NCBI GenBank assembly: GCA_965656305.1
Contig: CBFHKA010000041.1
Span: 41,340-105,339 of the forward strand
Length of the DNA: 64,000 nucleotides
Direction of reading: 5' to 3'
From: Polaribacter sp.
Lineage (GTDB): Bacteria > Bacteroidota > Bacteroidia > Flavobacteriales > Flavobacteriaceae
The position numbers and the translations under genes are program-made. Shown in pieces: positions 1 through 20,483 of the stretch. The notes under the pieces were generated by a model. That model saw nothing but the letters and a program-made list of their open reading frames with translations. It was not told the origin of the DNA and searched no databases. Positions within the stretch are counted from its first letter, which is position 1; the number at the start of each line of letters is the position of its first letter.

Positions 1-378
1 AAATTGATGAGATTCGTAAAATTTTTTTAGATATACTTGTGCAGAAATAGTAATTAATTCTTGATTAAAATTTTCTTTAATTGCTTTAATAGATGCTTTC
101 ATTAAAGTATGCCCATAACCATATTTACGTTCTAAAGCAGCAACTACTACTCTACCAATACTTGAGTTTTTAAAATAATCTCCAGGTTTAAAAATTCGTG
201 TATAAGCTACAATTTTATTGTTCTTTATACCTAATATATGTAATGATTTTTGATCTTTAAAATCTAAATCTTGATAGACACAATCTTGTTCTACTACAAA
301 TACTTCTGATCGTAATTGAAGTATTTGATAGAGTTCATCAACAGTTAATTCTTGAAAAGATTTTGTAATGAAGTTCAT
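1..378 (-). CDS. elaA: GNAT family N-acetyltransferase, ElaA-like (3' end runs off the window)
   Basis: Not in ORF track; hand translation from CAT at 376-378 gives MNFITKSFQELTVDELYQILQLRSEVFVVEQDCVYQDLD...IGRVVV...ISAQVYLKKFYESHQF, with the ElaA LRxxVFVVEQxCxYQDLD signature. Confidence 0.9.
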   Translation of the reverse strand, partial: MNFITKSFQELTVDELYQILQLRSEVFVVEQDCVYQDLDFKDQKSLHILGIKNNKIVAYTRIFKPGDYFKNSSIGRVVVAALERKYGYGHTLMKASIKAIKENFNQELITISAQVYLKKFYESHQF

Positions 379-395
379 ATAAAATAATAGATACT

Positions 396-464
396 TGTCA
401 TTACGAACGTAGTGAAGTAATCTTTTAATTTATAGAGAGATTGCTTCGTAAACTCGCAATGACA
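396..464. repeat. Bipartite palindromic REP-like element (GTCATT...AATCT family)
   Basis: tgtcattacga..gaagtaatct (396-423) and agattgcttc..tcgcaatgaca (438-464) are inverted arms with 10/11 and 9/10 matches. Confidence 0.85.
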
Positions 465-470
465 GAAAGT

Positions 471-902
471 TTAACAAGAAATTTTACCAACTCTATTTTG
501 GTGTCTTCCTCCTTCAAATTCTGTAGAAAGAAAAACATCTACAAAACCAATTGCTTGTTGTAAAGACACAAAACGTGCAGGAATTGTAAGAATATTTGCA
601 TTGTTATGTTGTCTTGTTAAGGCAACTAATTCATTATTCCAACATAAAGCAGCTCTAATTCCTTGATGTTTATTAGCTGTCATTTGTGCACCATTTCCAG
701 AACCACAAAGTATAATTCCTAACTCTGCTTTACCAGATTCTACACAATCTGCAGTAGGATGAATTGCATCAGGATAATCCATAGAAGCATTGGTATCTGT
801 ACCAAAATTTAATACTTTATATCCTTTATTTTCTAAATGTTTTATAATTTCGAATTTATATTCTGTTCCTGCGTGATCATTACCAATAGCAATTGTCATC
901 AT
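471..902 (-). CDS. rpiB: Ribose 5-phosphate isomerase B
   Basis: GNDHAG, DYPD, GIILCGSGNG, HNNANIL and FEGGRH motifs. Confidence 0.97.
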   Translation of the reverse strand: MMTIAIGNDHAGTEYKFEIIKHLENKGYKVLNFGTDTNASMDYPDAIHPTADCVESGKAELGIILCGSGNGAQMTANKHQGIRAALCWNNELVALTRQHNNANILTIPARFVSLQQAIGFVDVFLSTEFEGGRHQNRVGKISC

Positions 903-919
903 AATTTAATTTTTAAAAT

Positions 920-993
920 TGTCTTTACGAGGAAAAATGACGAAGTAAACTTTTTATTATTAAATAGATTACTTCATTTCATTCGTAATGACA
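920..993. repeat. Bipartite palindromic REP-like element upstream of rpiB
   Basis: tgtctttacga..gaagtaaact and agattacttc..tcgtaatgaca; same family as 396-464. Confidence 0.8.
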
Positions 994-1020
994 TAGTTAG
1001 AATAGCAAAAATATAGAAAT

Positions 1021-1510
1021 TAACGGTTATCAACAGTTATAAACATTTAAAATTTTATCATTTTTAATAAGTCCTTATTTTTAAAGGAATTAACTAGTTT
1101 AAGGTAATGTTAAGAACTTATCATTAAAAACTCGAAACTTTTTTTGGTGATTCTAATTTTAATTACAATACAAGCTCTTGGTTGATATATGCAAATTTTA
1201 TTTTAAGTATTTGATAAAAGTTTATCAACATAAAATTTACAATTTGTTTACATAAAAATTTAAATATTTATCAGTAAAAATAAGTGAATAACTGTTTATA
1301 AGTTTTGTTAATAACTCTAAATATTTATTGATTTTTAAGCTTTTAAATAACTCATAACTTGTCAATGCTTTTTAATAACTGATATTAAAAAGTAAATAAG
1401 TAAAATTTTATAGTAGCTATTCACATACTATTATAAACATTATTGTTTTTTAAAATTTTATAAAAGAAAAATAATTATAATATAGAATGTTGATAAGTGT
1501 GAAAAAATTG
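1021..1510. other. Probable chromosomal replication origin (oriC) with clustered variant DnaA boxes
   Basis: ORF-free AT-rich stretch with TTATCAACA (1027, 1222, rc 1488), TTATAAACA (1037, 1431, rc 1293), rc TTATTAACA (1306), rc TTATTCACT (1283), CTATTCACA (1417); parS-like sites 14-19 kb away. Confidence 0.7.
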
Positions 1511-1534
1511 AAGTGAAAATTTTAAAAAAATAAT

Positions 1535-1708
1535 TTAAACCGTCTTTTTCTCAGCTTCTAAAAGATATAAAGTGTCTTTTTGAATTTCTACAGTTTCTTT
1601 AGAAGGATGTTCTTTATTCAAAGAAGTATTTATAGTCATTACAGTAATACATATACCTGTAATGAATATAAAAGCGAAAAAAGCGATAATTTTACGTAGA
1701 TTTTTCAT
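1535..1708 (-). CDS. Small hypothetical membrane-anchored or secreted protein (57 aa)
   Basis: Not in track; MKNLRKIIAFFAFIFITGICITVMTINTSLNKEHPSKETVEIQKDTLYLLEAEKKTV has basic N-terminus plus hydrophobic helix; ECF-like promoter motif at 1735-1762. Confidence 0.6.
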   Translation of the reverse strand: MKNLRKIIAFFAFIFITGICITVMTINTSLNKEHPSKETVEIQKDTLYLLEAEKKTV

Positions 1709-1734
1709 CCTAAAAAGTTGATCTTCTTATTATA

Positions 1735-1762
1735 AAGACGTATCATTTAGGAAAACGTTACA
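1735..1762 (-). promoter_or_regulatory. Putative ECF-sigma promoter TGTAAC-N16-CGTCTT
   Basis: Minus strand reads tgtaac gttttcctaaatgata cgtctt, 26 nt before the ATG at 1708. Confidence 0.5.
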
Positions 1763-1920
1763 AATTTTTTAAGATTTTTTTAACTTATTAATTTCTAAAC
1801 TCAATTTTTAATTCTGAAAAAATCTTAAGAGTTTAATTTTCAATTTATAAGATGCTTACAATGTGAGTTATAAAAGGATAAATATTTTTAAAATCAAAAT
1901 TTTTAATTAGTAGCTATTTT

Positions 1921-2832
1921 TTATTTATTCACGACAAAATTAATTGCTTTTTCAATAATTTTTACGGTTACTTTTCCAGTACCAATGAGTTCACCATCAG
2001 CTTGAATAAAGGGTTTAGAATTTTTTTGAGTAACTGTAATTTCTTTAGTTTTATAGGTTTCTACTTTTTTGTGATATACAAACTTACCATTGTATAATTT
2101 ATGGATATTAAGAATCAAATCTAATAACGTAATATTTTTAGCAATAGTAATGTCTAAGAAACCATCTGAAGTATGTACATCTTTTGTAAACTGCATCCCA
2201 TTACCAGAAAATTTACAAATACCAAGAATTGTCATTAAACAATTTGTTTCTATTTCTTTATTATCAAATGTTACTTTAAAAACAGATTTTTTGTAAAATA
2301 ATAAACCATAAGTACCTGCAATTAAATAAGATAAAGAACCAAAAGGTTTCAGTTTTTTTAGTTTGTTAACTATATAACCATCATAACCCAAACCAGCTAC
2401 ATTATTAAAATATCTAATATTTTTACCTTTAGTTTCTAATACACCAATATCTTGTAAAATGGTGTTTTTTTGATGGATGATTTCTATAGCTTTTTGAATA
2501 TTTTTAGGGATGTTATAGGTTTTTATCCAATCATTTCCAGTACCTACAGGAATTACCCCAATAGTGATATCCGAAGTTTTTACATATCTTTGCGTCATTA
2601 TTCCATTAACTACATGATGTAGTGTTCCATCTCCACCTACTGAAATAATGTTTTTATAACCTTGTTGAATTGCGTTTTGTACCAATTCAATTTCGTGTTT
2701 AGAATACTCAGTTATAGCAAAAGAATAATCGATATTCTTGGTTTTTAAATTTTGCTGAATTTCCTTCCACTGTTTTGAAAATTTTCGATTTCCAGAAGTA
2801 GGATTTGCAATTAAAAACCAAGTTTGAATCAT
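1921..2832 (-). CDS. Diacylglycerol kinase-family lipid kinase (YegS/DgkB-like)
   Basis: ANPTSG, GGDGT, PVGTGND and QADGE motifs. Confidence 0.93.
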   Translation of the reverse strand: MIQTWFLIANPTSGNRKFSKQWKEIQQNLKTKNIDYSFAITEYSKHEIELVQNAIQQGYKNIISVGGDGTLHHVVNGIMTQRYVKTSDITIGVIPVGTGNDWIKTYNIPKNIQKAIEIIHQKNTILQDIGVLETKGKNIRYFNNVAGLGYDGYIVNKLKKLKPFGSLSYLIAGTYGLLFYKKSVFKVTFDNKEIETNCLMTILGICKFSGNGMQFTKDVHTSDGFLDITIAKNITLLDLILNIHKLYNGKFVYHKKVETYKTKEITVTQKNSKPFIQADGELIGTGKVTVKIIEKAINFVVNK

Positions 2833-2944
2833 AAATTAAAATAAATAAAAAGCCAAAATACAACAATAGATTGATAACTGTTTTTTAATACAATAACATC
2901 ATAAAATATTGTATTTTGGTATCATACAAATAAGAGTAAAATTA

Positions 2945-5245
2945 ATGACAAGAAAGAAAAAAAAGATATTTAAAAAGAAAGGAAAAGTCATCAAAGATTT
3001 AACTAGAAATATATTTAAAATATTAAACGAAGACAGTAATAAGTTTTATAATTACAAACAAATTGCTGCAAAATTAAAAGTTTCTGATACTGATGGAAAA
3101 AATCAGATTATCAAAAAACTAGCAGAACTAACTGCTACTAAAAAAATTAAAGAAATAGATAGAGGTAAGTTTCAAATTAATGAAGATCGTAAATATTCTT
3201 TAGGAACCTTAGATATTACATCTAATGGTAATGGATATTTTATGTCTGATGATTATGAAAACGATATTTTTATACCTAATATAAATCTAGGAAAAGGTTT
3301 ACATGGAGATGTTGTAAGAGCTTATGTTTATCAACGTAAAAGAAGTAGAAAATTAGAAGCTGATGTTGTTGAAGTTTTAGAACGCGCTAAAACAGAATTT
3401 GTAGGGGTTTTACAGAAAAGTAAAAATTTTGGATTTGTAATTCCTGATAACAACAAAATGTATGCAGATATTTTTATTTCAGAAAATAAAATGAATGGTG
3501 CAGAACATGGAGATAAAGTACAAGCAACCATTTCTGATTGGCCAGAAAATTCTAAAAATCCATTTGGAAAAATTACTACAGTTTTAGGAAAACCAGGAGA
3601 TCATAATACAGAAATGCATTCTATTTTATTAGAATACGATTTACCTTACGAATTTGAACCAGAAGTAGAAAAAGAAGCAGAATCTTTACCTATAGAAATT
3701 ACTGAATCAGAAATTGCTAAACGTAGAGATATGAGAGGCGATTTAACATTTACCATAGATCCAAAAGATGCAAAAGATTTTGATGATGCATTATCATTCA
3801 CAAAATTAGAAAACGGAAATTATGAAGTAGGAATTCATATTGCAGATGTATCTCATTATTTACAACCAAAAACAATTCTAGATGATGAAGCTTATGACAG
3901 AGCAACATCAGTGTATTTAGTTGATAGAGTAGTACCAATGTTACCAGAAATGCTTTCTAATGGAGTCTGTTCTTTAAGACCAAATGAAGAAAAATTAACT
4001 TTTTCCGCAGTTTTTGAAATCAACGAAAAAGCGCAAATAGTAGGAGAGTGGTTTGGTAGAACAGTTACCTATTCAGATCAACGTTTTGCATATGAAGAAG
4101 CACAATATTTGATTGAGGAAAATAGAGTAGATAAAAAAGATAAGAATCAAGATGATAAAAAGTCTGTCATTTCTAGTGAATTTTCGAAGAATCAGAAAAT
4201 TAGTATCGAGAAATCTTCATCTTTAAAATGTGTAATTCCTGCTAATGTTTCTATTACAGACAAGGAATATGAAGTAAAACCTGAAGTTGTAGAAGCTACT
4301 TTAAAGCTAGATGAATTGGCTAAAATTCTTCGTAAAAAAAGAATGAAACAAGGTGCAATTTCTTTTGATAGAGTAGAGGTGAAGTTCAATTTAGATGAAG
4401 AAGCAAATCCTGTTGGAGTATTCTTTAAAACATCACAAGATGCAAATAAATTAATTGAAGAATTTATGTTATTAGCTAATAGAAAAGTAGCAGAATTTAT
4501 TGGAAGTCATAAAGGAAAACCATCTAATAAAACGTTTATTTACAGAGTGCATGATGAACCTGATATTGAAAAATTAGCTTCTTTACAAAACATCATTAGT
4601 AAATTTGGGTATAAAATAAATACAGATACAAAAGAATCTACATCAGAATCTTTAAATCAGCTTTTAAATGATGTAAATGGTAAAGCAGAATCTAATATGA
4701 TTGAGACATTAGCAATTCGTTCCATGTCTAAAGCAGTATATACCACTCAAAATATTGGGCATTATGGATTGGCTTTTGATTATTACAGCCATTTTACATC
4801 ACCTATTAGACGTTATCCAGATGTAATGACACATAGATTACTTCAACATTATTTAGATGGTGGAGAAACGCCAAAAGCAGAACTTTATGAAGAAAAGTGT
4901 AAACATTCTTCAAAAAGAGAAGAATTAGCTTCAAAAGCAGAAAGATCATCCATAAAATATATGCAAGTAAAATACATGCAAGATCATAAAGATGAAGTTT
5001 TTGATGGTGTAATTACTGGGGTTACTGAATGGGGAATTTATGTAGAAATTTCTTCAAATAAATGTGAAGGAATGGTTAGAATTAGAGATATAAAAAGCGA
5101 TTATTATATTTTTGATGAAAAACAATATGCTATTGTTGGGCAATCTACCAAACATATTTATCAACTTGGAGATGATGTTCAAGTACAAGTAAAAAAGACA
5201 GATTTAGAACGTAAACATTTAGATTTTAATTTAATCGAAGACTAA
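2945..5245 (+). CDS. rnr: Ribonuclease R (RNB family), carrying an in-frame repeat-derived insertion
   Basis: FTIDPKDAKDFDDALS, HFTSPIRRYPD, C-terminal S1 domain; ATG 2945 (MTRKKKK) preferred over track start 2909. Confidence 0.97.
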   Translation: MTRKKKKIFKKKGKVIKDLTRNIFKILNEDSNKFYNYKQIAAKLKVSDTDGKNQIIKKLAELTATKKIKEIDRGKFQINEDRKYSLGTLDITSNGNGYFMSDDYENDIFIPNINLGKGLHGDVVRAYVYQRKRSRKLEADVVEVLERAKTEFVGVLQKSKNFGFVIPDNNKMYADIFISENKMNGAEHGDKVQATISDWPENSKNPFGKITTVLGKPGDHNTEMHSILLEYDLPYEFEPEVEKEAESLPIEITESEIAKRRDMRGDLTFTIDPKDAKDFDDALSFTKLENGNYEVGIHIADVSHYLQPKTILDDEAYDRATSVYLVDRVVPMLPEMLSNGVCSLRPNEEKLTFSAVFEINEKAQIVGEWFGRTVTYSDQRFAYEEAQYLIEENRVDKKDKNQDDKKSVISSEFSKNQKISIEKSSSLKCVIPANVSITDKEYEVKPEVVEATLKLDELAKILRKKRMKQGAISFDRVEVKFNLDEEANPVGVFFKTSQDANKLIEEFMLLANRKVAEFIGSHKGKPSNKTFIYRVHDEPDIEKLASLQNIISKFGYKINTDTKESTSESLNQLLNDVNGKAESNMIETLAIRSMSKAVYTTQNIGHYGLAFDYYSHFTSPIRRYPDVMTHRLLQHYLDGGETPKAELYEEKCKHSSKREELASKAERSSIKYMQVKYMQDHKDEVFDGVITGVTEWGIYVEISSNKCEGMVRIRDIKSDYYIFDEKQYAIVGQSTKHIYQLGDDVQVQVKKTDLERKHLDFNLIED
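4165..4216. repeat. Intragenic palindromic element (TGTCATTTC...GAGAAATCT) inside rnr
   Basis: tgtcatttctagtgaattttcgaagaatcagaaaattagtatcgagaaatct: outer stem atttctag/cgagaaat, inner stem aattttc/gaaaatt; same ends as the rc arm at 32528-32569. Confidence 0.75.
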
Positions 5246-5267
5246 TCCTGAATTTGTTTTAGGATCT
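5245..5267. repeat. Short REP-like hairpin after the rnr stop
   Basis: atcctgaa-tttgt-tttaggatct, a variant of the attctgaa-cttgt-ttcagaatct unit at 37099 and 40918. Confidence 0.55.
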
Positions 5268-5283
5268 TTTTAATAGATAAAAT

Positions 5284-5607
5284 ATGATTTTAACAACAAC
5301 ACCAAACATAGAGAACTTTAAAATAGTAGATTATTTAGGTATTGTAACAGGTACAGCTTATGATTCTAGTTATACAGCAAATGGTACAAAAATGTCTTTT
5401 AAAGATATGTTTAGTATGTCTAAATATTATGAAAAATATTCTTTAGCTCTAGAAACTATTAAAGAAAAAGCTTTTCAAAATTTAAAAAACAATGCAACTA
5501 AATTAGGAGCAAATGCTGTAGTTGGTATTCAATTAGATGTAGAACCACTTGCAAATTCATCAACTTTGTTAGTTTCTATAACAGGTACTGCTGTTAAAGT
5601 ACAATAA
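5284..5607 (+). CDS. YbjQ/UPF0145 family protein
   Basis: MILTTTPNIE...YLGIVTG...LGANAVVG...ITGTAVKV. Confidence 0.9.
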   Translation: MILTTTPNIENFKIVDYLGIVTGTAYDSSYTANGTKMSFKDMFSMSKYYEKYSLALETIKEKAFQNLKNNATKLGANAVVGIQLDVEPLANSSTLLVSITGTAVKVQ

Positions 5608-5626
5608 AATTAAAAAACTTATATTT

Positions 5627-5657
5627 AAAAAAATACGTCATATGACGTATTTTTTTT
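5627..5657 (+). terminator. Intrinsic terminator
   Basis: aaaaaaatacgtca-ta-tgacgtattttttt perfect inverted repeat with T tract. Confidence 0.85.
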
Positions 5658-5697
5658 GCTTCGTATTTGATTGACTTTTGTAAAAAACTTAATCATT

Positions 5698-7038
5698 ATG
5701 AAAACAAAATTACTTTTAGCATTTTTTTTACCAATATTAGCTTTTGGTCAAACACAGTTAGGAAATCAAATAAACAATCCAGATGAAAGCAACACAAAAC
5801 CTAGTAAATTTGGAACAGGTGTATCTATTTCAAATGATGGAAGCATTATTGCAATTGGAGCTCCAGGAAACAATGAAGATAGTTTTGTAAGAGTTTTTCA
5901 GTATCAAAATAATGCTTGGCAACAGTTAGGTTTAGATATTGAAAATGAATCAGTATTAGAAAAAGTAGGTCATAGTGTTTCTTTATCTTCTGATGGAAAA
6001 ACACTTGCAGTAGGTGCTCCAGAAGGTGGTGATTTAGATGAAGGACATATCAGAATTTATGAATATAAAAACGATGCTTGGGAAAAAATTAGCGAAATTG
6101 TTGGTGATGGAACTCAGTTTTATTTGGGCTACAAAGTAGCAATGACTCCAGATGCTAAATTTTTGGCAGCTACTGCTTATAAAACAAATTCTTCTAAAAA
6201 AGGAACTGTAAAAGTATATGAAAACATTAATGGAACCTGGGCTCAAAGAGGTTTAAACTTAGAAGGAGAATTTAATTATGATGCTTTTGGTTTTACTTTA
6301 GATTTATCTGATGATGGCAATGTTTTAGCAATTGGAAATAAAGGAAGAAAAAAAGTAAAAGTATTTGAGTTTGCAAACAATGCTTGGTCTCAGATTGGAG
6401 ATGATTTTATAGGTTTAAGTACAACTACAAGAGAATTTATGAGTGTTTCATTATCTTCTAATGGAAATAGAGTAGCAATTGGATCTGCAGAAGGAGTAAA
6501 TATTTACGAAAACACCAATAATTCATGGAGTTTATTAGGTAGTAAAATAAGTTATGGAAGCATCAATTCTTTATCATCTGATGGAAATCATATTGCTATT
6601 GGTTCACCTTACAATTACACAGTAAAAAATTATACTTTTAATGATAATTCTTGGACACAAAGAGGTATAGAAGTTTCTACCTGGAGAAGTAGTAATTTTA
6701 GTGAATCTTTAGCTTTATCAGCAGATGGAGATACTTTTATAGCAGCAAGTAACAAAGCTTTTCCAAGAGTTTATACTTTTAATGAAACATTATTATCTAC
6801 AGAAAAGAATAGTTTTAAAAACACAATTTCTTTATATCCAAACCCTGTAAACAATACTCTTAATATTCGAATTTCTAAATTAAACTTTAAATTTTTAACA
6901 ATTTATAATTTATTAGGAAAACAACTTATAAAAAGTACTAATACCAAAATTAATTTAACATCCTTTTCTAAAGGAATTTATCTTTTAAAATTAAAAACAG
7001 ATAAAGGTGTAATTACTAGAAAAATAATAAAAAATTAA
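5698..7038 (+). CDS. T9SS type A sorting domain protein with FG-GAP-like beta-propeller repeats
   Basis: Signal peptide MKTKLLLAFFLPILAFG, repeated (S)LSSDGxxxAIG units, C-terminal LYPNPV...GIYLLKL...KIIKN; ATG 5698 preferred. Confidence 0.9.
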   Translation: MKTKLLLAFFLPILAFGQTQLGNQINNPDESNTKPSKFGTGVSISNDGSIIAIGAPGNNEDSFVRVFQYQNNAWQQLGLDIENESVLEKVGHSVSLSSDGKTLAVGAPEGGDLDEGHIRIYEYKNDAWEKISEIVGDGTQFYLGYKVAMTPDAKFLAATAYKTNSSKKGTVKVYENINGTWAQRGLNLEGEFNYDAFGFTLDLSDDGNVLAIGNKGRKKVKVFEFANNAWSQIGDDFIGLSTTTREFMSVSLSSNGNRVAIGSAEGVNIYENTNNSWSLLGSKISYGSINSLSSDGNHIAIGSPYNYTVKNYTFNDNSWTQRGIEVSTWRSSNFSESLALSADGDTFIAASNKAFPRVYTFNETLLSTEKNSFKNTISLYPNPVNNTLNIRISKLNFKFLTIYNLLGKQLIKSTNTKINLTSFSKGIYLLKLKTDKGVITRKIIKN

Positions 7039-7141
7039 AGTTCTTGTTGCGTTAATTTTTTCATCTTTGCCACAATAAAAAAGGGAATAAGTCTTTATAG
7101 TGGTATACTTATTGGTTTAAGTATCATAATCAAACTTAAAA

Positions 7142-7834
7142 ATGATGAAAAAAATAATATTTGTATGTGTTTTAATGATGACCTTTTCATCTATTGCACA
7201 AAGTAAAGTAACTAAGAATTTAGGAGATTTTACAATACTAAAAGTATATAATGGTATAGAATTAGAGTTAATTAAATCTTCTGAACAGCGTTTAGAAATT
7301 ACTGGGAATAAATCTGAAATCGTAAAAATTAAAACGGTTAATAATACTTTAAAAATTTCTTTACCTTTTTCTTTAAAACCTGAAAATAATGCAGCAAATG
7401 GTGAGGTTTTGGTAAAATTATATTACTCTAAAAACATTGATATTGTTGATGCTAATGAGGGTGCAACTATTACAGGAAAAGAAATTAAACAAGACAAATT
7501 AGAAGTAAATGTGCAAGAAAGAGCATTTATAAATTTAGTTGTAAACGTAAAACATTTAGAGGTAAGAGCTTCTTCTGGTGGAATTATTAAATTATCAGGA
7601 AGTACTAAAAACCAAACTGTAGATGTAGATTTGTATGGAATTTACAATGGTTTTACTTTAATTAATAAAACAAATACTACTGTAAAAGCAGGAACTGGAG
7701 CTAAAGCAGAGGTTTTTGCTGGAGAAACTTTAAATGCAAAAGTAAGCTTTGGAGGGTCAATTTTTTATAAAGGAAACCCAGAAGTAGTAAAAGATAAGAA
7801 AGTAATTGGTGGAATCATTCAAAAAAGGAATTAA
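7142..7834 (+). CDS. Head GIN domain (DUF2807) protein
   Basis: Signal peptide, LGDFTILKVYNGIELEL, ASSGGIIKLSG, VSFGGSIFYKGNP. Confidence 0.85.
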   Translation: MMKKIIFVCVLMMTFSSIAQSKVTKNLGDFTILKVYNGIELELIKSSEQRLEITGNKSEIVKIKTVNNTLKISLPFSLKPENNAANGEVLVKLYYSKNIDIVDANEGATITGKEIKQDKLEVNVQERAFINLVVNVKHLEVRASSGGIIKLSGSTKNQTVDVDLYGIYNGFTLINKTNTTVKAGTGAKAEVFAGETLNAKVSFGGSIFYKGNPEVVKDKKVIGGIIQKRN

Positions 7835-7877
7835 TAGAATCCTTTTTGTATCTTTGTGTTATTAAATTTTAGAACAG

Positions 7878-8069
7878 ATGAATACTTTAAATATATTTTT
7901 ATTAGGAATGCCAAGTGGAGGATCTTGGATTATTATTGCAATTGCAATTTTATTATTGTTTGGTGGTAAGAAAATACCAGAATTAATGAAAGGTTTAGGT
8001 GGTGGTATAAAAGAGTTTAAAAAAGCATCTAAAGAAGAAAAAGAAAAAGAAGATAAAATAGAAGAATAG
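7878..8069 (+). CDS. tatA: Twin-arginine translocase TatA/TatE subunit
   Basis: [26 protein letters not shown]; TATCTTTG -7 promoter element at 7849-7856. Confidence 0.95.
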
Positions 8070-18605: not shown

Positions 18606-20483
18606 ATGAGTTTATTTTCAACAACATACGATGTAATTGTAGTGGGTGGAGGACATGCAGGAAGTGAAGCTGCTGCTGCTGCTGCAAATATGGGTGCACA
18701 CACTTTATTAATTACAATGAACTTGCAAAATATTGCACAAATGAGTTGTAATCCAGCTATGGGTGGTATTGCAAAAGGACAAATTGTAAGAGAGATTGAT
18801 GCGCTTGGTGGTTACAGTGGAATTGTAACGGATAAGACTGCTATTCAATTTAAAATGCTCAACAAATCTAAAGGACCTGCAATGTGGAGTCCAAGAGCAC
18901 AATCTGATAGAATGCAGTTTGCTGAATGTTGGAGAACAATGTTAGAGCAAACAGAAAATGTAGATTTTTATCAAGATTCTGTAAACGGATTATTGTTTGA
19001 TGAAAATAAAATTATAGGTGTAAAAACAGCTTTAGGGTTAGAGATAAAAGCAAAAACAGTTATTATAACTGCAGGAACTTTTTTGAATGGTTTAATCCAT
19101 ATTGGCGATAAAAGTTTTGGTGGAGGTAGAGCAGGTGAAGGAGCCTCAAAAGGAATTACTGAAGATTTAGTAGCGAAAGGTTTTGAAGCAGGTAGAATGA
19201 AAACAGGAACTCCTCCAAGAGTAGATGGGCGTTCTTTAGATTATTCTAAAATGACAGAACAACCAGGAGATGAAATCACAGAAAAATTTTCTTATTTACC
19301 AATTACAACTCCATTAAAAAAACAACGATCTTGTTGGTTAACATATACCAACAAAACTGTTCATGATTCATTAAAAGAAGGATTTGATAGGTCTCCAATG
19401 TTTAATGGTAGAATTAAATCTACAGGGCCAAGATACTGTCCTTCTGTAGAGGATAAAGTAAATCGTTTTGCAACTAAAGAAAGGCATCAAATTTTTGTAG
19501 AACCAGAAGGTTGGTCTACAGTAGAAATGTATGTCAATGGATTTTCTACATCACTTCCAGAAGATATTCAAGACAAAGCTATAAGATCAATAGAAGGCTT
19601 TGAAAATGTAAAGTTTTTAAGGTATGGTTATGCTATTGAATACGACTTTTTTCAACCTACGCAATTAACACATTCTTTAGAAACGAAGCTGATAGAAAAC
19701 TTGTTTTTTGCAGGTCAAATAAATGGTACAACAGGTTATGAAGAAGCAGCAGCACAAGGTTTAATGGCTGGTGTAAATGCAGCTTTAAAAGTACAAGGAA
19801 AAGATCCATTTATATTAAAAAGAAATGAAGCATATATTGCTGTTTTAATTGACGATTTAATTACAAAAGGTACTGAAGAACCTTATAGAATGTTTACATC
19901 TAGAGCTGAATATAGAACTTTGTTACGACAAGATAATGCAGATTTAAGATTAACTCCCAAAGGATTTGAGATTGGTTTGGCCTCTGAAGAACGAATGAAT
20001 AGAGTTTTAGAGAAACAAAGAAAAACCGATCTATTAATTGATTTTTTAAATAAAACAAGTGTAAAACAAGAAGAGATTAATCCAATATTGGAAGCTAAAA
20101 ATTTAGCTTTGATTAATCAATCTATGAAGTTATTTAAGATTGCTGCAAGACCTCAATTAGATTTTTCAGATTTCAAAAACATTGAAAAACTAAATTCCTT
20201 TCTAGAGGAAAATAACATTGATCAAGAGATTATTGAACAAGCAGAAATTCATTTAAAATATTCTGGATATATCAATAAAGAAAAGAATAATGCTGATAAG
20301 TTAAATCGTTTGGAAAATGTAAAAATTCCATCTTCTTTCAATTATCAAAAGTTGCAATCGCTATCTTTTGAAGCTCGTGAAAAACTGAGTAAAATTCAGC
20401 CGACTTCGATTTCTCAGGCAAGTAGAATTAGTGGAGTTTCTCCAAGTGACATTTCTGTTTTATTGGTTTATATGGGAAGGTAA
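18606..20483 (+). CDS. mnmG: tRNA uridine-5-carboxymethylaminomethyl(34) synthesis enzyme MnmG (GidA)
   Basis: GGGHAGSEAA, MSCNPAMGG, GPRYCPS, AGQINGTTGYEEAAAQG, FTSRAEYR. Confidence 0.99.
   Translation: MSLFSTTYDVIVVGGGHAGSEAAAAAANMGAHTLLITMNLQNIAQMSCNPAMGGIAKGQIVREIDALGGYSGIVTDKTAIQFKMLNKSKGPAMWSPRAQSDRMQFAECWRTMLEQTENVDFYQDSVNGLLFDENKIIGVKTALGLEIKAKTVIITAGTFLNGLIHIGDKSFGGGRAGEGASKGITEDLVAKGFEAGRMKTGTPPRVDGRSLDYSKMTEQPGDEITEKFSYLPITTPLKKQRSCWLTYTNKTVHDSLKEGFDRSPMFNGRIKSTGPRYCPSVEDKVNRFATKERHQIFVEPEGWSTVEMYVNGFSTSLPEDIQDKAIRSIEGFENVKFLRYGYAIEYDFFQPTQLTHSLETKLIENLFFAGQINGTTGYEEAAAQGLMAGVNAALKVQGKDPFILKRNEAYIAVLIDDLITKGTEEPYRMFTSRAEYRTLLRQDNADLRLTPKGFEIGLASEERMNRVLEKQRKTDLLIDFLNKTSVKQEEINPILEAKNLALINQSMKLFKIAARPQLDFSDFKNIEKLNSFLEENNIDQEIIEQAEIHLKYSGYINKEKNNADKLNRLENVKIPSSFNYQKLQSLSFEAREKLSKIQPTSISQASRISGVSPSDISVLLVYMGR

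Follow-up and report, generated by a model that had tools for sequence, protein, structure and literature searches.

The origin of replication of Escherichia coli, oriC, lies in the gap between gidA/mnmG and mioC, about 42 kb from dnaA. Its box R1 has the ACA end facing the 13-mers, and box 7 of Bacillus subtilis faces the DnaA-trios in the same way. The B. subtilis BUS is made up of boxes 6/7, DnaA-trios and an A+T-rich region (PMC8287927, PMC6669920), and it is searched for as a box followed, after no more than 16 bp, by three or more NAN triplets (PMC8287927). On the basis of DoriC, it has been described as common in the Bacteroidetes for the origin to be distant from dnaA (PMC4755523). The only Bacteroidetes origin found cited with experimental support is that of Cytophaga hutchinsonii, for which replicative oriC plasmids provided the confirmation (Xu et al. 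2012, cited in PMC3531139). In the genome report of Algorimicrobium bowmanii KMM 8389, Ori-Finder 2022 marks an 'oriC (mnmG)', given by its indicator gene only and without sequence details (PMC12843772).

The stretch of DNA analysed here (the window, 64,000 nucleotides) corresponds to positions 41340-105339 of contig C41 in a draft genome of 2.94 Mb with 29% G+C and 50 contigs. The nearest relatives at the gene level are Polaribacter species, followed by Tenacibaculum, all of them Flavobacteriaceae. A cluster of DnaA boxes is located in a non-coding gap, with rpiB on one side and the gene for a yegS-like lipid kinase on the other. The conserved block at 1004-1497, present as a single copy in the genome, is read as the oriC of this Polaribacter-like member of the Flavobacteriaceae, with a probability of roughly 0.9; from the sequence we infer DnaA binding and the exact melting site. 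An earlier note on this DNA had proposed an origin unlinked to dnaA. That proposal is supported by the strand-bias switch and the conservation reported below, and dnaA and dnaN are indeed outside the window, on contigs C10 (8.6 kb) and C26, respectively. The features of the locus are:

471 to 902, minus strand: rpiB (Pfam LacAB_rpiB, E = 2e-55), the left neighbour, with transcription directed away from the putative origin
1004 to 1497, no strand: conserved non-coding block read as oriC, comprising the box array and the unwinding element
1006 to 1013, minus strand: conserved CAAAAATA, the reverse complement of TAnnTTTG, at the left edge of the putative origin (columns at least 80% conserved)
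about 1443 to 1487, no strand: probable DNA-unwinding element, A/T-only with one G, with a T5 run at 1447-1451
1535 to 1708, minus strand: ORF of 57 codons between the putative origin and yegS, with a hydrophobic N-terminus, unconserved
1921 to 2832, minus strand: yegS-like lipid kinase (Pfam DAGK_cat and YegS_C), the right neighbour in most Polaribacter and Tenacibaculum
2909 to 5245, plus strand: RNase R, beyond the yegS-like kinase
18606 to 20483: mnmG, within the window, 17 kb from the box cluster

In many relatives the first box is found 15-60 bp after the yegS stop, so the region of the ORF at 1535-1708 is regarded as an insertion or fast-evolving filler. The gap between rpiB and the array is 124 bp here, compared with 46-60 bp in most relatives, because a REP-like hairpin of 72 nt is inserted at 921-992. 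A second imperfect hairpin of this kind (67 nt) occupies 397-463, on the other side of rpiB. The hairpin termini read GTCWTTRCGA...TCGYAAWGAC, and at least 12 strict copies are present genome-wide.

The sites of the array are given below with their state in relatives, taken from per-site box profiles of a 54-sequence alignment; A6 and C6 denote A or C at box position 6.

1027 to 1035, plus strand: DnaA box TTATCAACA, first of a tandem pair; TTATCAACA in 41 of 54 relatives, position 5 C, T or G, A6 in 50/54
1037 to 1045, plus strand: DnaA box TTATAAACA, second of the tandem pair after a 1-bp gap; TTATAAACA or TAATTAACA in relatives, A6 in 53/54
1108 to 1116, minus strand: invariant box variant TTCTTAACA, identical in 52 of 54 aligned relatives
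1222 to 1230, plus strand: DnaA box TTATCAACA, the same in 48 of 54 relatives, A6 in 53/54
1283 to 1291, minus strand: weak box TTATTCACT, degenerate among relatives, with C6 in 26 and A6 in 24
1293 to 1301, minus strand: DnaA box TTATAAACA, identical in 52 of 54 relatives
1306 to 1314, minus strand: DnaA box TTATTAACA, the same in 46 of 54 relatives, A6 in 54/54
1417 to 1425, plus strand: DnaA box cTATTCACA, position 6 C in 31/54 and A in 23/54, within the part best conserved family-wide
1431 to 1439, plus strand: DnaA box TTATAAACA, pointing into the A/T-only stretch; relatives vary between TTATAAACA and TAATAACAA
1488 to 1496, minus strand: DnaA box TTATCAACA, abutting the probable unwinding element; seven of nine positions identical in 54/54, position 5 C, T, G or A, position 3 A in 52/54
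1498 to 1506, minus strand: box-like TTTTTCACA with C at position 6, unconserved, the alignment being gapped and variable

The exact motif TTATMAACA is present at six sites (1027+, 1037+, 1222+, 1293-, 1431+ and 1488-), and the C6 boxes are TTATTCACT at 1283-, cTATTCACA at 1417+ and TTTTTCACA at 1498-. The earlier note had counted nine box-like 9-mers, seven of them with A6, and this count is correct: the seven are the six exact sites and TTATTAACA at 1306-. Its list did not contain TTCTTAACA at 1108-. The window holds 13 copies of TTATMAACA, six of which fall inside 470 bp; shuffled windows have 5.6 on average, and none of 100 shuffles reached 13. Over the whole genome (2.94 Mb), the best 500-bp interval is the one described here, with six exact copies against a maximum of two elsewhere, and for the looser form TTATNMACA the counts are seven here and at most three in any other 500-bp interval. 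The window shows no enrichment of the canonical TTWTNCACA. A box cluster that is unique in the genome and far above background, as an origin should have, is in this way established directly.

Conservation was followed with a protein-anchored scan, which gave 80 loci with a yegS homologue, 72 of them containing rpiB. The 54-sequence alignment is highly conserved between about 1004 and 1497, with a decay on either side. The loci of Polaribacter and Tenacibaculum repeat, completely or partially, a seven-box spacing of 0/57/182/195/267/452/462 bp together with its strand pattern, and the spacing is kept in other Flavobacteriaceae as well. Within 700 bp upstream of rpiB, 70 of the 72 rpiB loci have at least four exact copies of TTATNMACA, the background being 0.28 per 700 bp. 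Insertions part yegS from the array in several relatives, where the array remains with rpiB, and no full array was found at the loci without rpiB. When one genome per genus was searched with BLAST in 151 genera of Flavobacteriaceae, matches were obtained in 61, about 25 of them at E < 1e-8. The strongest family-wide matches are one per genome and are centred on 1400-1497, which contains two boxes, the A/T stretch and a third box. Boxes are clustered beside rpiB in all three Flavobacteriaceae genomes inspected and in none of 19 genomes from other families of the Bacteroidota, and the linkage to rpiB is therefore a family-level trait. The conservation is itself an observation; the position, spacing and orientation of the boxes are kept across genera, as would be required of an origin, and the check by conservation that the earlier note had named thus came out in its favour.

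Raw GC skew on C41 tracks gene orientation closely, and for this reason a gene-strand-corrected GC3 skew was used, namely the coding-strand GC3 skew of each gene minus the genome-wide coding-strand mean, signed by gene strand. Twenty-one contigs have 25 or more long ORFs, and in 20 of these the cumulative curve is monotonic with both extremes near a contig end. Contig C41 alone has an internal minimum, at 39.7 kb, after a drop of 163 units and before a rise of 866; the cluster is located at 42.36-42.85 kb, 2.6 kb away. A 7-mer strand-polarity log-odds score, trained on the other contigs and chosen after strongly skewed 8-mers gave too few events on C41, is lowest on this contig at 38.9 kb, within a flat floor that spans 38-44 kb. 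The complete chromosome of Polaribacter sp. HL-MS24 (2.49 Mb) was sampled in twenty 20-kb pieces and contiguously at 996-1140 kb. Its corrected skew is negative in 9/9 samples from 0 to 1016 kb, and positive in 8/8 between 1120 and 2012 kb; the last three are mixed. The cumulative minimum is at 1112-1117 kb and the orthologous cluster at 1115.9-1116.4 kb. For Tenacibaculum sp. A30, 280 kb surrounding the locus were analysed; the curve is a clean V whose floor, at 1782-1830 kb, includes the cluster (1826.2-1826.6 kb). The resolution of the skew is about 5 kb in the present genome and about 45 kb in Tenacibaculum A30. The cumulative minimum is directly observed to coincide with the cluster, within these resolutions, in three genomes. 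In this genome and the two complete relatives the switch is at the cluster and not at dnaA, which agrees with what had been proposed from the window.

The probable unwinding element follows the tandem boxes 1417/1431. The earlier note had described an A/T-only run at about 1443-1483; a run is present at 1446-1484, although with a single G at 1466. The 40-mer at 1446-1485 is the least stable of window positions 1-8000 (-35.7 kcal/mol, mean -45.0, sd 3.0). At least 93% of relatives have T throughout the columns of the T5 run (1447-1451), and at 1447-1487 G and C are almost absent from the 54 sequences, while A and T interchange at many columns, for example 1452, 1456, 1461 and 1476. The A/T-only state is kept while the sequence drifts, and selection therefore acts on composition rather than on sequence, as expected of a DNA-unwinding element. 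An A+T-rich element beside the boxes, and the constraint on it, are matters of observation. The flanking boxes at 1431+ and 1488- converge, the ACA end of each facing the A/T stretch. The BUS pattern is formally present after box 1431 and before box 1488; its (NAN)n part has no discriminating power, because the DNA is 85% A+T and meets it trivially. Neither a 3-nt periodicity of conserved A nor GAT was seen in this A-rich DNA across the 54 sequences.

Compared with the described systems, the putative origin resembles E. coli oriC in being unlinked to dnaA, in its mnmG neighbourhood and in having a fixed-length array of oriented boxes. The polarity of the box at the end of the DUE is the same, 5'-DUE-TGTGGATAA-3' (R1) in E. 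coli and 5'-A/T run-TGTTGATAA-3' here. However, mnmG is 17 kb away here and adjacent in E. coli, there are neither 13-mer repeats nor a clustering of GATC, box position 6 is A and not C, and a box stands on both sides of the unwinding element. The B. subtilis BUS (PMC8287927, PMC6669920) is formally matched by the tandem boxes 1417/1431, a short spacer, the T-middle triplets TTG TTT TTT and the A/T-only region, but no 3-nt periodicity of conserved A was seen and the GAT consensus is absent. The origins predicted in Bacteroidetes by DoriC/Ori-Finder, such as that of Prevotella intermedia OMA14, are likewise intergenic box clusters at a GC-skew switch far from dnaA; those predictions used the E. 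coli box with one mismatch and no lineage consensus (PMC4755523), whereas the present locus has TTATNAACA, a fixed architecture in several genera and the linkage to rpiB. The oriC of Cytophaga hutchinsonii, as far as the citing source describes it, shares the phylum and a DnaA-box origin and differs in its class. Algorimicrobium bowmanii KMM 8389 belongs to the same family, but no box cluster is present here beside mnmG itself. Its 'oriC (mnmG)' denotes the same chromosomal neighbourhood, since 8-17 kb separate mnmG and the rpiB array in the genomes checked.

Alternatively, DnaA could bind the block in a regulatory or titrating role, the block being an rpiB promoter under DnaA control or a site of the datA/DARS type, with the true origin elsewhere in the 38-44 kb skew floor, for example nearer mnmG. 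In 62 of the 72 loci the last box is followed by the rpiB start after 46-60 bp, and the left edge of the array overlaps a conserved promoter element of the TAnnTTTG type, which we take to be the Bacteroidetes -7 element. From this match, CAAAAATA at 1006-1013 is probably the rpiB promoter. The upstream element of such a promoter would overlap the tandem boxes at 1027/1037, and DnaA occupancy could therefore affect the transcription of rpiB. The array abuts this probable rpiB promoter, and part of its conservation may serve transcription. A scan for sigma-70 promoters and terminators found no more sites than in shuffles, with a consensus that is wrong for the Bacteroidetes phylum. The same reading gains from the position of mnmG, 8-17 kb off in this genome and six relatives (7/7 checked), from the 'oriC (mnmG)' of the Algorimicrobium report (PMC12843772), and from the skew, which has no power to separate sites a few kb apart. 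However, no second box cluster was found near mnmG, in the window or elsewhere in the genome. A promoter would have no need of 490 bp of boxes at fixed spacing with a 40-bp A/T-only stretch, and the part most conserved in the family (1400-1497) is the part far from rpiB. Sites of the datA, DARS or B. subtilis DBC type would be expected mid-arm and away from the switch, whereas the cluster is at the switch in three genomes. A regulatory or titration role in place of an origin is accordingly considered improbable. An origin directly beside mnmG was rejected in view of the distance and of the missing box cluster there.

Still less probable is a conserved structured non-coding RNA, or a cis-element unrelated to DnaA, in which the 9-mers would be incidental in A+T-rich DNA. 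The conserved block is of constant length, and its 494 nt fold somewhat better than shuffles (z = -2.0 and -2.8). These modest scores arise because the inverted boxes pair: the predicted outer stem consists of the inverted terminal DnaA boxes pairing together. There is no Rfam match at E <= 1, the conserved positions cluster in 9-mers of either strand whose fifth position is free, and the location matches the skew switch in three genomes. The RNA reading was rejected on the lack of an Rfam match and on the source of the fold signal. It is equally implausible that the box cluster is real but replication begins beside dnaA as in most bacteria. In favour of this, contig C10 has one TTATTCACA some 80 bp upstream of dnaA. 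However, it is the only box there and no cluster is present; dnaA of HL-MS24 (307 kb) shows no skew switch and sits within a uniformly negative arm; and in eight complete or near-complete relatives 0.8-1.85 Mb, or 32-43% of the chromosome, separate dnaA from the skew-minimum locus. A dnaA-adjacent origin is excluded by the skew of a complete relative, and the cluster itself adjoins neither dnaA nor dnaN.

If the block is oriC, DnaA would bind, through its domain IV, about ten 9-bp sites with the consensus TTATNAACA, C6 being tolerated at a few. The fixed spacing of the sites would let the bound DnaA-ATP form an oligomer, which would melt the A/T-only segment 1443-1487 bracketed by the inward-facing boxes 1431+ and 1488-. 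The replicative helicase would be loaded next, and forks would depart both ways.

Box positions 1-4 and 7-9 are near-invariant in the 54 sequences, and position 5 varies freely between C, T, G and A, like the N of the canonical TTATNCACA. At seven sites (1027, 1037, 1108, 1222, 1293, 1306 and 1488) A6 is found in 50-54 of the 54 sequences, and at two, 1417 and 1283, A and C are swapped at position 6. The retention of A6 at seven sites argues for purifying selection on it at most sites, with C6 accepted at some. Judged by the alignment, A6 is selected and is more than mutational drift tolerated in an A+T-rich genome. The working consensus is TTATNAACA, with TTATNMACA as a looser form. The lineage-specific consensus put forward in the earlier note holds in the comparative data, A6 being as strict as the core positions while position 5 drifts.

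The DnaA protein encoded on contig C10 has 475 aa and was aligned over its full length with solved DnaA structures. Six residues of E. coli DnaA make base-specific contacts, R399, P423, D433, H434, T435 and H439 (PMC7561715, PMC5043019). Four of the six are kept here, and the changed ones are P423A (in SLASIG) and T435A (in RDHATV). In none of 30 DnaA sequences sampled from across the phylum is residue 423 a P: Flavobacteriaceae have A there, and most other families have K. At residue 435, Flavobacteriaceae share A with one other family, the remainder having S or T. We infer that P423A and T435A underlie the A6 preference. A tentative extension, which we hold at somewhat less than even odds, is that the preference of Flavobacteriaceae DnaA has moved from C to A at box position 6 through P423A/T435A. 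TTATNAACA would then be a high-affinity site and not a weak variant, and the origin would have co-evolved as a rigid architecture of about 490 bp, common to several genera, with the unwinding element clamped between two convergent boxes. DnaA would in that case bind TTATCAACA tighter than TTATCCACA. The pairing of A6 boxes with P423A/T435A offers a small, directly testable case of co-evolution between initiator and origin, and the possible specificity shift is the one part that might repay experiments. A full-text literature search for TTATCAACA returned unrelated papers only. A second, short ORF on contig C18 (7950-8177) encodes 179 aa with similarity to domain IV of DnaA (36% identity, E = 1e-8); its product may be a stand-alone DnaA-box-binding protein.

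The find is solid yet fairly ordinary, because origins distant from dnaA are already on record for Bacteroidetes, and it leaves the general picture of bacterial replication initiation unchanged. New are the skew test in three genomes, the per-position footprint, the A/T-only element flanked by convergent boxes, the restriction of the rpiB linkage to the family and the lineage distribution of the two DnaA substitutions. The origin of abundant marine flavobacteria (Polaribacter, Tenacibaculum) would be pinned to a defined 490-bp element, which could serve as a starting point for oriC-based shuttle plasmids. Its position helps to orient draft genomes and MAGs and supports coverage-based estimates of growth rate (peak-to-trough ratio). 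The family consensus TTATNAACA would sharpen the prediction of origins relative to searches with the E. coli box.

Some further observations were made on other contigs. An intergenic dif-like GATGCACCATAATTTATATTATGTAAAATA is present on contig C12 (17911-17940), where the corrected GC3 skew passes from weakly positive to negative at about 8-17 kb; the site is a candidate replication terminus. On contig C40, whose G+C is the highest (32.4%) and which carries few long genes, the 7-mer polarity forms an inverted V peaking at 51.6 kb, whereas the corrected GC3 skew is monotonic. One locus of the scan (L007, CAXMOR010000028.1) comes from a MAG labelled 'uncultured Acidimicrobiia bacterium', and its yegS and rnr have 75-84% amino acid identity to those of this flavobacterium; it is probably a mis-binned Polaribacter contig.
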